Shown one piece after another: positions 39,621 through 42,117 of a DNA stretch of 64,000 nucleotides. This DNA comes from an uncultured Candidatus Saccharibacteria bacterium. GTDB taxonomy: Bacteria > Patescibacteriota > Minisyncoccia > Phycocordibacterales > Phycocordibacteraceae. Both the position numbers and the translations under genes were made by a program. The DNA lies in NCBI GenBank assembly GCA_964507275.1, contig CAZDPG010000001.1, positions 20,958-84,957 of the forward strand, written 5' to 3'. Numbering within the stretch: the first letter of the stretch is position 1; every line of letters starts with the position of its first letter. The notes beneath the pieces were generated by a model that saw nothing but the letters and a program-made list of their open reading frames with translations, was not told the DNA's origin and ran no database searches.

Positions 39621-39744
39621 AATCTTTTTTGACAATGTCAAAATTTTCCTCCAAACCCGTATCACGGATGCTTACGGCAACTCCGAATTTCGACGAAACT
39701 CGTGCGATTTCTGGCACGGATATTCGTGATATGACCTCTCAACT

Positions 39745-40278
39745 ATGAAGAAGATGCAAAACAACTACGCGTTCATAGATAGTCAGAACTTGAATCTGGG
39801 TATACAAAAGCTCGGGTGGAAGCTGGATTATAGAAAATTCAGAATCTATTTAGCAGAGAAATATGGTGTCACAAAAGCATATATGTTTATCGGTTTCGTA
39901 GCGTTCAATCAGTCGCTCTACGACAATTTGCAGGAAGCGGGGTTTATTTTGAAGTTCAAGCCCACGATTCCTGATGCCGATGGGAAACTAAAAGGCAATA
40001 TAGATGCCGATCTTGTGTTGCGCGCTATTCTCGATGTTGGCGAATATGATTCGGCTGTTGTAGTAACAAGCGACGGCGACTTTTATTCGCTTGTTCAACA
40101 TCTCCGCGAAATTGGAAAATTGAAAGTTGTCTTGAGTCCCGATATAGAACACTGTTCGACACTGCTCAAGCAGGTGGCAGAAGGAAGGGTATGGTTCATG
40201 AATAACTTGCGCCTGCTCCTCGAATATAAACGAAAAACGCCGCCTGGGGACAGAACCCAAGGAAGCGTCCTTCAATAG
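39745..40278 (+). CDS. NYN-domain (LabA-like, PIN-fold) nuclease
   Basis: 'NYAFIDSQNLNLG...AYMFIGFVA...NIDADLVLRAI...SAVVVTSDGDFYSLVQHL' is the NYN/LabA pattern with conserved Asp residues; AT-rich codon usage. Confidence 0.7.
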   Translation: MKKMQNNYAFIDSQNLNLGIQKLGWKLDYRKFRIYLAEKYGVTKAYMFIGFVAFNQSLYDNLQEAGFILKFKPTIPDADGKLKGNIDADLVLRAILDVGEYDSAVVVTSDGDFYSLVQHLREIGKLKVVLSPDIEHCSTLLKQVAEGRVWFMNNLRLLLEYKRKTPPGDRTQGSVLQ

Positions 40279-40290
40279 AGATACACTTCT

Positions 40291-41634
40291 ATGATATCCC
40301 CACGAGATAAAAAGTCAATGAAGGGTGTGGACAAAGCGAATGCTGCTAGGCGGTTCGGGCGTATCATCGCCGATGCAGTTTTCGGACCCTCTCTGCCGCC
40401 TGCTGAACACTCCAGTGCCGACATTGCTTCGGCGCCTGCGACACTTCCTGTCGTGTCGAAAAAGGCGACTATGACGACCGGCACTGTGTGTCCGTATTGC
40501 AATTCAAGCGACTTCGTCAAGCGCGGGATACGGCAGAAGAAGCATGAGGCGGTACAGCTCTACTTGTGTCGAAATACGGAATGCGGCCGCACATTTACTG
40601 CCGAGAGAGTGAAAGGGAAAAGATTCCCGCTCTCGGTGATACTGGAGGGCATCAGCTATTACAACTTGGGGTTAACGCTCGAGCAGACCTGCCATATTTT
40701 GGAAGAAAAATTCAAAGATATTTTGCCGCCGACGCCAGCCACGCTGGCGTCGTGGGTGGAAGAATATAAACCGATTTGCAGGTTTGAGCGCATGCGCCCC
40801 TACGCTATCAAGCTCTTCCCGCCGCAGAAGATGATCGAGGTGGTCTCTATGGCGCATCGCCAGCTCTATCGTTTCCGCTACCACCGCGCCAAGACCCTGC
40901 TCTCGATGGAAGAGTTCAGGAATCGCCGCTTCGGGCGGCTGAAGGAATATCTGGACAACGTGTCGAGCGAGACGCCGCACCAATATTTCGCCGACGGCGA
41001 GCGCATGAGCGAGATCCGGAGCAAGTTCGATAAGACAGACATGATAGTGAAGAGTAAATCGAATTTCGCGAACAAGACCGCCGAATTCGTCTTGCGGAGC
41101 GTGACTGATAATAAAGACCGCCACGAGGCGCTCCAGCGCTTCATGATCGCGAACGACTCGGTGACGGTGGCGACCGAGGTACCGGTGTATATACGGAGAG
41201 AAGACGTGGAGCATATGGAGAATGAATTGAAGTTCAAGATTACGCGTCCCAGTGCCGATTTTGACGGGAGCATTGAGCCGGCCATCCTGCTCAAGGGAGA
41301 CAAGCAACTGCGCCAATTTCCTAAATTATTAACGGGGCACATCGACTTCGTGCAAATCAGGAACGGTATGGTGCACATCCTCGATTACAAGCCGAACGCG
41401 AGCAAGGAGAAGCCGATTGAGCAACTAACGTGGTATGCACTCGCGCTCTCGCGCCTCACCGGCCTGCGACTCTTCGAGTTCAAGTGCGCATGGTTCGATG
41501 ATAAGGATTTCTACGAGTTCTATCCTCTGCATATCGTCAAGAAATTACAGCCGAAGAAGCGGGCACGGAAGGTGCATTACCGCGACGGCAGCGTGGCAGA
41601 GGTGCCGCGCGAAGACGTGCTTAAAGTTGCATAA
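40291..41634 (+). CDS. InsA-like zinc-ribbon/HTH DNA-binding domain fused to PD-(D/E)xK nuclease domain (candidate freestanding homing endonuclease)
   Basis: 'CPYCNSSDFVKRG...LYLCRNTECGRTF' C2C2 ribbon then HTH-like 'ISYYNLGLTLEQTCHIL' (IS1 InsA-like); C-terminal 'GHIDFVQIRNGMVHILDYKPN' is a D...(D/E)xK nuclease core. Confidence 0.55.
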   Translation: MISPRDKKSMKGVDKANAARRFGRIIADAVFGPSLPPAEHSSADIASAPATLPVVSKKATMTTGTVCPYCNSSDFVKRGIRQKKHEAVQLYLCRNTECGRTFTAERVKGKRFPLSVILEGISYYNLGLTLEQTCHILEEKFKDILPPTPATLASWVEEYKPICRFERMRPYAIKLFPPQKMIEVVSMAHRQLYRFRYHRAKTLLSMEEFRNRRFGRLKEYLDNVSSETPHQYFADGERMSEIRSKFDKTDMIVKSKSNFANKTAEFVLRSVTDNKDRHEALQRFMIANDSVTVATEVPVYIRREDVEHMENELKFKITRPSADFDGSIEPAILLKGDKQLRQFPKLLTGHIDFVQIRNGMVHILDYKPNASKEKPIEQLTWYALALSRLTGLRLFEFKCAWFDDKDFYEFYPLHIVKKLQPKKRARKVHYRDGSVAEVPREDVLKVA

Positions 41635-41636
41635 AT

Positions 41637-42107
41637 ATGACGATGAACTACGCACAATCCAAATATAAGACGGCGTTTACGCCGAGGAAACCGGTGAAAA
41701 CCTTCCGTGACCTGGACATCTATCAGAAGACGATGGAATGCTCCGTCATTGTGGTGAAGAGTATCCGTCCGAAATTAGTTACGCTGAAGTACCCGTTTCT
41801 AGAGGGTGTCACCGACTGCGCGATGACGGTCCCGCTCTCTATTGGCGAAGCGCACTCTATCCGCTTTGGCGACTTCGCAAAGGGTCTCGCGCTTCTGGAG
41901 AAAGCGATGTCCGGCTGCAACAAGATGATCATCTACCTAGAACACATCAAGGGCATGTATGGGGCCAAGGTGGATGTCGACATATTGGATGAGATCGTCG
42001 CCCGGTATGCCGAGAGCCGGACAAAGACCTTTCATCTGGAGCAATCGTGGAAGAAGTGGAATACTGCGCCACGAGAGGTCGGTGCGCCAGGCAAAGTCAG
42101 GCTATAA
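41637..42107 (+). CDS. four-helix-bundle protein (23S rRNA intervening-sequence / Avd family)
   Basis: 'FRDLDIYQKTMECSVIVVK...LSIGEAHS...FAKGLALLEKAMSG' matches the 'FEDLxVWQKA...SIxxNIAEG...FLxIAxGS' family pattern. Confidence 0.6.
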   Translation: MTMNYAQSKYKTAFTPRKPVKTFRDLDIYQKTMECSVIVVKSIRPKLVTLKYPFLEGVTDCAMTVPLSIGEAHSIRFGDFAKGLALLEKAMSGCNKMIIYLEHIKGMYGAKVDVDILDEIVARYAESRTKTFHLEQSWKKWNTAPREVGAPGKVRL

Positions 42108-42117
42108 TATCATTATC

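Follow-up and report, generated by a model that had tools for sequence, protein, structure and literature searches.

The DNA analysed here (the window) is a stretch of 64,000 nucleotides (nt), positions 20,958 to 84,957 of contig CAZDPG010000001.1 in GenBank assembly GCA_964507275.1, from a groundwater bacterium of the Patescibacteria (candidate phyla radiation, CPR). The gene of a giant surface protein is encoded in it as two open reading frames (ORFs) on the + strand, and between them we observed a 2.5-kb cassette of three + strand ORFs (39621-42117), designated g1, g2 and g3, at the endonuclease-insertion point of a DnaB-type class-1 intein. The locus, including the N- and C-terminal parts of the intein (IntN and IntC) and of the host protein (the exteins), has the following features.

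26397-39620, + strand: ORF of the N-extein and IntN, 4,407 amino acids (aa)
26397..39329, + strand: N-extein of the giant surface protein, with ~27 GNVGIGTTSP repeat motifs and Peptidase_S74 near its end
39330..39620, + strand: IntN, 96 aa (C1, block B TTANHPF) and stop; Pfam Intein_splicing and Hint
39627..39742, + strand: conserved cassette leader, ~110 nt, directly after the IntN stop; TATCACGG...GAAACTCGTGCGATTT...ATTCGTGATAT
39745..40278, + strand: g1, NYN (PIN-like) nuclease gene, 177 aa; variable passenger
40291..41634, + strand: g2, Zn-ribbon, helix-turn-helix (HTH), helical middle and PD-(D/E)xK domain, 447 aa; conserved core gene
41637..42107, + strand: g3, four-helix bundle of the 23S-rRNA intervening sequence (IVS) / Avd fold, 156 aa; constant partner of g2
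42118-43662, + strand: ORF of IntC and the C-extein, 514 aa, with its own ATG at 42118
42118..42333, + strand: IntC, 72 aa; block F VYDIEVDGTHNF; block G GIFAHN
42334..43662, + strand: C-extein, with +1 Thr, coiled coil and two Bact_surface_Ig-like domains (PF16403, E = 2e-37)

After the Peptidase_S74 domain (Pfam, E = 1.4e-14) the upstream ORF ends with CVTGDTRL...TTANHPFLARRPSAELASATRSV and a stop codon. The downstream ORF opens with MLSSLKKMRGDKRGWYKV...VYDIEVDGTHNFVGNGIFAHN/TYML (here and below the slash marks a junction) and continues into the coiled coil and the two Bact_surface_Ig-like domains; its intein part matches TIGR01443 intein_Cterm (NCBIfam, E = 4e-9) and Pfam Intein_splicing. 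Joined in silico, IntN and IntC match the DnaB mini-inteins 4o1r (E = 2e-16) and 1mi8 (E = 1e-13) in a phmmer search. The break falls between two aligned DnaB mini-intein blocks, which is the endonuclease-insertion point; an earlier reading of the DNA made without database searches (the sequence-only reading) had placed the insert in this slot, and the alignment agrees. The class-1 intein (HINT) signature is complete: C-VTGDT, TTANHPF, VYDIEVDGTHNF and FAHN/T. An uninterrupted, intein-less homologue (locus L030) is colinear over the predicted splice junction, ...VDSQ/GNIGIGTSTP... standing against ...VESQ/TYMLRASTT... in the window.

Fractured genes, as described by Dassa et al. 2009 (PMC2677866), have a split intein with one or more free-standing nuclease genes between its halves. 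At the locus considered here the host coding region is split on one strand, with the predicted nuclease genes NYN and g2 in between. We regard it as firmly established that the intein is in this way split, its two halves being translated separately, and that the locus is a fractured gene as Dassa et al. 2009 use the term. The rest of the anatomy is just as firm: the cassette has a frame that is fixed and passengers that vary.

Like the DnaB-type class-1 mini-inteins (Npu and Ssp DnaB; 4o1r, 1mi8), the intein has blocks A, B, F and G; as in these mini-inteins and in split inteins, it carries C1, TxxH, the terminal HN and a +1 nucleophile, and it is split at the canonical endonuclease site. Unlike DnaB mini-inteins and DnaE split inteins, it has Thr at +1 and a long IntC (72 aa), and its halves are adjacent rather than dispersed. 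DnaE split inteins typically combine an acidic IntN with a basic IntC; the net charges found here (IntN 0, IntC -3) differ from this pattern.

The insert is not a LAGLIDADG, HNH or GIY-YIG endonuclease gene, just as the sequence-only reading had maintained; no match to a LAGLIDADG/HNH-type domain was found within 39621-42117 (Pfam, NCBIfam, PHROG). The earlier assignment of g1 to the NYN nucleases is sound: its product matches PF01936 (Pfam, E = 1.4e-14) with 55.2 bits against a cut-off of 24.2, and carries the acidic motifs FIDSQN, NIDADL and TSDGD.

For g2, which databases start at M10 (giving 438 aa), the proposed combination of an InsA-like Zn-ribbon/HTH with a PD-(D/E)xK nuclease could be upheld. 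The protein matches NF050000, the IS1/IS1595 N-terminal Zn-binding domain, at E = 1.9e-7 (31.5 bits, cut-off 28), although the InsA Zn-ribbon family PF03811 itself scored only 13.4 bits, below its cut-off of 26.1, with a precomputed PF03811 match in few distant homologues. PDDEXK_1 (PF12705) scored 21.9 bits, the cut-off being 22.0, and many homologues have a precomputed PF12705 match. The catalytic residues are conserved, as the assignment presupposed: invariant in 36 homologues are E296, H350-D352, D365-K367 and Q378...Y382 (RecB/Cas4 motifs I-IV), along with C67/C70/C93/C98 of the zinc-ribbon CxxC...CxxxxC. The g2 protein has the RecB/Cas4-type motifs E / hxD / (D/E)xK / QxxxY and a restriction-endonuclease-like fold; its matches include Dna2, NucS, AddA and RecB and, lower in rank, HTH domains of transposase/terminase type (residues ~114-158). 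Judging by the invariant catalytic set and the Cas4 fold, g2 looks catalytically competent.

Unlike Cas4/RecB nucleases (PF12705; 4r5q, ACE1 9iab), g2 adds an N-terminal IS1/IS1595 Zn-ribbon, an HTH and a helical domain of ~180 aa, has no CRISPR or Argonaute neighbourhood, and has no conserved four-cysteine Fe-S cluster (beyond the Zn-ribbon only C163 and C399 are invariant among the 36 homologues). We rejected its identification as Cas4 proper, given the lack of this cluster and of cas genes in the neighbourhood. Its identification as an IS1/IS1595 transposase was rejected as well: the equivalog models gave 16 bits with cut-offs of 100-125, and the C-terminal half is PD-(D/E)xK.

The assignment of g3 to the 23S-IVS/Avd four-helix bundles holds by fold: g3 has the up-down four-helix bundle common to 2rld, 2gsc and Avd. 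The protein itself has no hidden Markov model (HMM) match at E<0.1 in Pfam or NCBIfam; 11 of 34 homologues match PF05635 weakly (best 5.4e-4), and one is named 'four helix bundle protein' by NCBI. The 4-nt overlap of g2 and g3 reported earlier does not exist: the g2 stop TAA occupies 41632-41634 and the g3 ATG is at 41637, which leaves a 2-nt spacer. Like the 23S-IVS proteins and Avd (PF05635, TIGR02436; 2rld, 2gsc, 4dwl, 8ub7), g3 is encoded in an intervening sequence. Unlike them, it reaches no HMM threshold, has 156 aa with N- and C-terminal extensions, and is paired with a nuclease, not a reverse transcriptase (RT), in an intervening sequence that acts at the protein level. ORFs of the 23S_rRNA_IVP family, with function unknown, occur within insertion sequences of CPR 16S/23S rRNA (PMC11270868). 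We also considered a diversity-generating retroelement (DGR) and rejected it, as no RT domain was found in the cassette, the flanking genes or ten further neighbouring ORFs of the window that were scanned.

The cassette has a constant frame: the leader, then 0-3 passenger genes (here NYN), then g2 and g3. The leader contains an invariant inverted repeat, TCACG/CGTGA, and a third copy, TCGTG, and is conserved at the nucleotide level, third codon positions included. According to nhmmer it precedes the first cassette gene in ~27 loci within and outside inteins (L012, L015, L016, L019, L023, L024, L028, L029, L032, L033 and L044 also among them), as well as a distant g2 homologue (locus L054). A mini-ORF running through the leader overlaps the NYN start by ATGA. 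No Rfam family corresponds to the leader, and a structured RNA was rejected, as RNAalifold (8 and 21 sequences) recovered the invariant outer inverted repeat alone and saw no covariation. We read the leader as an operator/promoter-type or other DNA- or sequence-level element.

At the other end, the g3 stop lies within the conserved AAGCTATAAT, and the IntC ATG follows ~10-20 nt on (10 nt in the window). In the model of Dassa et al. the invading element supplies the stop of the upstream half, a control region and the start of the downstream half (PMC2677866); both ends of the cassette agree with this model. The locus L012, outside any intein, retains a remnant of the IntC start (6321-6400), ~6 codons (MFSSLS), directly after g3. 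The cassette, then, looks to have carried the downstream start codon along, as expected by the Dassa model. As the leader accompanies the cassette to non-intein sites and L012 keeps this remnant, the cassette appears to move as a unit. No terminal inverted repeats or target duplications were found bounding it.

We assessed recurrence in a census with one genome per species (tblastn and HMM searches with inspection of ORFs), which gave 38 loci (L008-L045) from Kaiser-, Zambryski-, Yanofsky-, Taylor-, Doudna-, Moranbacteria and other Paceibacterota. In all 36 loci that extend past g2 it is followed by g3, directly in 32; in the remaining four a NYN, PemK or Bro-N gene stands between them. IntN and/or IntC flank the cassette in 14 of the 38 loci, in addition to the window. 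The split-intein loci have a stop 8-20 aa past NHP[FY]L and a conserved IntC start, M..L.KMRGD.KGWYKVSDL. About 22 of the 38 cassettes have no adjoining intein; they are free-standing, typically right after a giant repeat-protein gene (2 loci were too short). Cassette-internal NYN genes occur in 5 of the 38 loci, MazF/PemK-like genes in 13 and Bro-N genes in 5, in the following orders.

NYN-g2-g3: window, L033 (the latter outside any intein)
NYN-PemK-g2-g3: L013, L014, L024 (second PemK copy between g2 and g3)
PemK-g2-g3: L008, L015, L016, L017, L037, L038
Bro-N-g2-g3: L011, L041, L043
Other passenger orders: L020, L022, L025, L028

NYN, MazF/PemK-like and Bro-N genes are interchangeable passengers, and the conserved unit is the g2-g3 pair. 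The three genes had been taken by the sequence-only reading as one module; this did not stand, given the five NYN loci and only one bare NYN-g2-g3 arrangement elsewhere, L033, outside an intein. The same reading had considered that the triad might recur as an ordinary operon unrelated to inteins. This turned out to be half true: ~22 of the 38 g2-g3 cassettes are indeed outside inteins, yet they are not ordinary operons, as the same leader and the same giant repeat-protein family are found alongside.

Several loci depart from the split arrangement. In L007/L021 and in L022 IntN is fused in-frame to g2, the linker between them being the translation of the stretch homologous to the leader. The intein of L040, which belongs to the same family, is contiguous and includes a linker of ~100 aa. 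In L034 (1025-2308; metagenome-assembled genome Paceibacterota SO_2017_GW1_169) a contiguous same-family intein carries an in-frame NYN at the endonuclease slot, all in one 1,549-aa ORF. The distribution of the cassette is patchy, and two diverged g2-g3 copies per genome were seen in one Yanofskybacteria (L037/L038) and one Kaiserbacteria (L010/L035) genome. A GNxGxGT-repeat protein is encoded upstream on the same strand in 20 of the 25 loci with at least 2 kb of upstream sequence, including 4 of 6 distant relatives, which belong to Nanoarchaeota and other lineages.

Passenger-type genes are also present in the window directly past the C-extein region.

43666-44514, + strand: Bro-N gene (Pfam Bro-N, 2e-11)
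44492-44731, + strand: 79-aa Zn-ribbon ORF
44691-45185, + strand: MazF/PemK-like gene (Pfam PemK_toxin, 3.7e-10)

The families of these three genes (43666-45185), here parked just outside the intein, sit inside the split-intein slot in other genomes (L008, L011, L013, L014, L025, L041, L043), and L011 retains a PemK 3' remnant ahead of g2. Such placement suggests that passenger genes may have been shuffled between positions inside and outside the intein.

We estimated the ratio of non-synonymous to synonymous substitution rates (dN/dS) for the window versus seven intein-bearing loci. Synonymous differences were near saturation (proportion of synonymous differences, pS, 0.5-0.87), and non-synonymous ones were few. 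The dN/dS values were 0.04-0.05 for g2, 0.05-0.08 for g3, 0.10-0.24 for IntN, 0.05-0.37 for IntC and 0.10-0.25 for the C-extein, whose identity to the C-exteins of related loci is 60-74%. The most conserved segments of each locus are g2 and g3, which by these sequence comparisons are old genes under strong constraint. Recent horizontal transfer as the cause of the 60-90% identity of g2 was rejected for the loci compared, since synonymous sites are near saturation; the high identity is due to constraint. The low values of both intein halves and of the C-extein argue against a dead gene. Trans-splicing of the halves is indirectly suggested by the retained splicing residues, by dN/dS below 0.4 and by occurrence of the architecture in 14 species.

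The notion of a recent hitch-hiker could not be maintained: g2 and g3 have dN/dS of ~0.05 at near-saturated synonymous sites, and only NYN, PemK and the leader deviate in GC content (43.6%, 42.6% and 42.7%, respectively, with 53.4% in the window, 53.8% in g2 and 52.4% in g3). The description of the NYN gene as strikingly AT-rich is moderately true: its GC content is below that of all 28 background ORFs, but its GC at third codon positions (GC3), 0.50, is no outlier. The passengers look compositionally foreign, and the core genes g2 and g3 do not.

The giant gene is rich in a 19-nt box, the DNA encoding the GNVGIGT repeat motif (box DNA CAACGTCGGCATCGGGACG, written as the pattern CAANNTCGGCANNGGGACG). 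We searched for the box with the IUPAC pattern, allowing ≤2 mismatches, with a shuffle control. There were 20 matches in the window, while 0.17 were expected; 18 of them are in-frame repeats of the giant gene (28814-38876). The other two are perfect, inverted, and located inside the IntN tail and g2.

39579..39597, + strand: inverted box in the IntN tail, CGTCCCAGTGCCGAACTTG, a perfect match to CGTCCCNNTGCCGANNTTG; present or absent here in related loci
41245..41263, + strand: inverted box in g2, CGTCCCAGTGCCGATTTTG, in a variable, disordered loop (residues ~319-327, predicted local distance difference test, pLDDT, <50)

A degenerate third copy was noticed at 40412-40433. Related loci either have or lack the inverted box, read as RP.A[DE][VIFL], at each of six or more positions (IntN tail, g2 N-terminal extension, g2 loop, g2 tail, g3 tail, IntC loop), with some copies reaching ~39 nt. 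In forward orientation the box was seen in the g3 tail of L043 and in distant g2 homologues, and inteins of the same family are inserted beside such boxes, e.g. ...GNVGIGTTNPTQKLQVNGH/C.... An nhmmer search with a 45-nt box profile, which is too short for the purpose, gave no significant matches in the cassette. These copies may represent recognition sites, footprints left by repair, or debris.

The g2 family is large. We detected 1,639 homologues; the best 120 of the 1,639 are 59-100% identical to g2, and those with names are from Patescibacteria. Among 50%-identity cluster representatives, 190 match at E<1e-30 and 1,603 at E<1e-3. Relatives 30-45% identical, with ~340-380 aa, keep the g2 architecture in Margulisbacteria, Chloroflexi, Methylomirabilales, Nanoarchaeota and Aenigmatarchaeota. 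In six of seven distant contexts inspected the g2 relative is downstream of, and on the same strand as, a gene for a large surface/toxin-type protein: a protein of >1,568 aa, a 2,579-aa LamG protein, an RHS/YD protein, a Peptidase_S74 protein, a 981-aa protein and a 1,068-aa Big_9 protein. These loci are L046, L047, L049, L051, L052 and L053, with Nanoarchaeota and Methylomirabilales among the source names; in the seventh, L054, only a truncated 293-aa ORF is upstream. In L053, the context with the Big_9 protein, a 6,089-aa LamG protein carrying Hint/intein domains comes next. Distant g2 relatives often adjoin toxin-antitoxin modules (PIN, RHH-PIN, MNT/HEPN, PemK), and L052 also holds a NYN gene.

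A four-helix-bundle partner was identified in none of the six distant contexts listed above. In L054 the gene after the g2 homologue has a precomputed PF05635 match. Alignment by hhalign of the g3 profile with this protein and with a 147-aa ORF of L053 gave no signal, the profile being shallow (effective number of sequences, Neff, ~2). The representative library contains one protein, P0251 (561 aa), in which a g2 homologue and a g3-like four-helix bundle are naturally fused into a single chain. The invariable order in 36 of 36 loci, this fusion and the PF05635 neighbour in L054 indicate that g2 and g3 are functionally linked. No g2 relatives were found in 2.9 million viral contigs (IMG/VR); a phage origin was rejected, as there are no such relatives and the neighbours are housekeeping genes.

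Comparison with the fractured genes described earlier (PMC2677866) reveals much in common. The host ORF is divided into N-part+IntN and IntC+C-part, which share a strand, and the endonuclease insertion point holds the nuclease gene(s). The inserted genes are immediately preceded by a conserved, control-like element that contains an inverted repeat, the downstream half opens right where the insert has its 3' end, and relatives of the nuclease genes also exist free-standing outside inteins. There are differences too. The insert is 2.5 kb with three genes here and a 27-51 nt spacer with one gene there; the nuclease is of Zn-ribbon/HTH/Cas4 type with an obligatory four-helix-bundle partner, theirs being GIY-YIG or Vsr-like; and the host is a giant surface protein of ~4,750 aa on a cellular CPR chromosome, not a phage DNA-metabolism enzyme.

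We hold, with about as much confidence as doubt, that a free-standing, homing-type nuclease module of two proteins (g2 and g3) may have fractured the intein. The most economical mechanism would be that of Dassa et al. 2009, invasion of an intein endonuclease site by a free-standing nuclease element. All gene-breaking states of that scheme are found within one intein family: L040, L034, the fractured genes, L007/L021 with L022, and the free-standing cassettes. The g2 protein would be a sequence-directed DNA endonuclease, with Zn-ribbon and HTH binding DNA and the Cas4/RecB-type PD-(D/E)xK domain cutting it. Its physical partner g3, possibly oligomeric like Avd, would have a regulatory and/or nucleic-acid-binding role. 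The pair would act like a free-standing homing endonuclease, breaking cassette-free giant 'GNVGIGTT'-repeat genes or their 3' flanks, and the cassette would be copied in by repair of the break. Landing in a mini-intein would have split it, which the host could tolerate because the halves still splice: they would associate and trans-splice in the cytoplasm, yielding a protein of ~4,750 aa joined as ...VESQ-TYML..., and the element would now depend on trans-splicing. The NYN, MazF/PemK-like and Bro-N genes would be exchangeable passengers between the leader and g2, probably with addiction or regulatory functions. Mobility and a target are hinted at by the two copies per genome, the patchy distribution, the upstream repeat genes and the inverted boxes in the cassette. 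There is a precedent for the nuclease superfamily: homing enzymes, free-standing or within intervening sequences, may belong to the PD-(D/E)xK superfamily, e.g. the Vsr-like EDxHD enzyme I-Bth0305I (PMC3239194); I-Ssp6803I is another homing endonuclease of this superfamily.

A number of observations weigh against this scenario. With ~22 of the 38 cassettes outside inteins, g2-g3 is not strictly an intein endonuclease. Selfish homing endonucleases typically decay after fixation; dN/dS of ~0.05 at saturated synonymous distances is unusual for them and fits a persistently useful function. No high-identity pair of empty and filled sites was found, and homing events are undocumented. A defence or addiction island would also be in keeping with the co-resident RNase genes (NYN, MazF) and with the toxin-antitoxin modules next to distant relatives. 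The absence of family members from the 2.9 million viral contigs differs from the situation of the classic fractured genes, thought to be of phage origin (PMC2677866). Finally, nuclease activity, target and trans-splicing are inferred for every member of the family.

Two alternatives stay alive in view of the purifying selection, the cross-domain linkage to GNVGIGT genes and the toxin-like passengers. It is conceivable, though in our estimate unlikely, that g2-g3 with the NYN, MazF/PemK-like and Bro-N genes forms an abortive-infection or toxin-antitoxin-like conflict module, in which g2 would be a DNase effector and g3 an inhibitor or sensor; such an island would occupy permissive spots, the intein linker included, with no role in mobility. 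The passengers are typical toxin or defence domains, PIN, RHH-PIN, MNT/HEPN and PemK modules adjoin distant g2 relatives, the selection is strongly purifying, and PADLOC gave weak matches to an Argonaute-associated Cas4-like nuclease and a LabA/NYN component; still, no known defence system was matched by PADLOC above noise. Nor would generic islands explain the same-strand linkage to giant repeat genes across bacteria and archaea, and the in-frame IntN-g2 fusions, with the leader doubling as intein linker, would be left unexplained. This linkage, conserved across domains, speaks for a second alternative. Here g2-g3 would serve the host by making breaks at GNVGIGT-box DNA of giant surface-protein genes; after such breaks, repeats and paralogues would undergo gene conversion or cassette exchange, with surface variation as the outcome, and the intein position would be incidental. 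We consider it rather improbable. Very low dN/dS agrees with it, the scattered box copies (19 to ~39 nt) in g2, g3 and the intein halves resemble footprints of surface-gene-templated repair, and the Avd fold otherwise serves DGR-driven diversification of surface proteins. But the copies within the cassette could be neutral slippage or recombination debris, binding and cleavage of the box are pure conjecture, no variable-versus-template repeat pair was identified, and no RT was seen in the cassette, the Pfam-annotated flanking genes or the ten more distant window ORFs scanned. A bolder version, for which we likewise see only a small chance, is that g2-g3 might be an RT-independent, 'box-directed' nuclease system for giant surface genes of ultra-small symbionts (CPR, DPANN and others): the Zn-ribbon/HTH head would recognise GNVGIGT-coding DNA, the Cas4-like domain would cut nearby under control of the Avd-like partner, and repair would shuffle repeats and C-terminal modules, resulting in surface variation, with inverted box footprints and fractured resident inteins as side products.

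Two further explanations appear very improbable to us. If g2 were a PD-(D/E)xK 'transposase' with TnsA-like chemistry and an IS1/IS1595-type head, the segment from the leader to g3 would be an insertion sequence. The above-cut-off IS1/IS1595 Zn-binding domain, weak similarity to N-termini of IS6 and IS1 transposases, the annotation of members as 'transposase-like' by JGI and the presence of more than one copy in some genomes point this way; against it, the cassette is not bounded by terminal inverted repeats or target-site duplications, and neither a DDE or integrase protein nor a second transposition protein is present. Copies are few, and the insertion contexts are highly specific rather than dispersed. 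We give equally little credence to a decaying pseudogene, in which the insertion would have inactivated both intein and host gene, leaving the C-terminal ORF not joined to the N-terminal one. It is true that splicing is predicted from sequence only and that promoter/terminator scans give nothing above chance. On the other hand, the stop/start architecture is common to 14 divergent species, all splicing residues are retained, and dN/dS is below 0.4 in both halves and 0.10-0.25 in the C-extein.

The literature search returned no description of such inteins in CPR/Patescibacteria, none pairing 'intein' with 'NYN domain', and none of a Zn-ribbon/HTH/Cas4-like nuclease family of the g2 type. The view of the sequence-only reading that the combination is undescribed was right in that no published description was found; the overall arrangement, though, is of a known kind (PMC2677866). 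That reading did not state that the cassette splits the intein into two separately translated halves. The present locus extends the fractured-gene arrangement to a cellular CPR chromosome, a giant surface protein and a multi-gene insert, with a single intein family displaying every intermediate of the proposed gene-breaking pathway. It also defines a large family of Zn-ribbon/HTH/Cas4-like nucleases, whose members from bacteria and archaea form ~1,600 clusters when grouped at 50% identity. The undescribed g2-g3 pair follows giant surface-protein genes across many tiny-celled bacteria and archaea; its same-strand linkage to GNVGIGT genes and the boxes in the cassette suggest that some mechanism acts on the principal surface proteins of episymbionts. 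The Avd/23S-IVS-fold partner offers a testable role for a four-helix-bundle family of unknown function outside DGRs, and natural split inteins with Thr at +1, conserved over long divergence, could serve protein ligation.

As for the surroundings, scans for sigma-70 promoters and intrinsic terminators gave nothing exceeding the shuffled expectation, an Rfam search of 39400-45400 found no known RNA family (only a sub-threshold chance match at 45120-45217), and the window was found to have no second copies. The locus is surrounded by housekeeping genes of the chromosome (SecA, Obg, GatB, GAPDH, transketolase, aldolase), and groundwater metagenome contigs, labelled PRJNA292723 and as long as 673 kb, carry an identical locus. 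Past the passenger genes lies a second large surface protein, of Laminin_G_3 type (1,358 aa, 45303-49379). The giant surface protein starts with an HTH_17-like (excisionase/MerR-type) segment (26397-26560) ahead of a membrane helix, and the 280-aa ORF directly upstream (24943-25785) also has an N-terminal HTH_17, an odd feature in a giant protein that is secreted.

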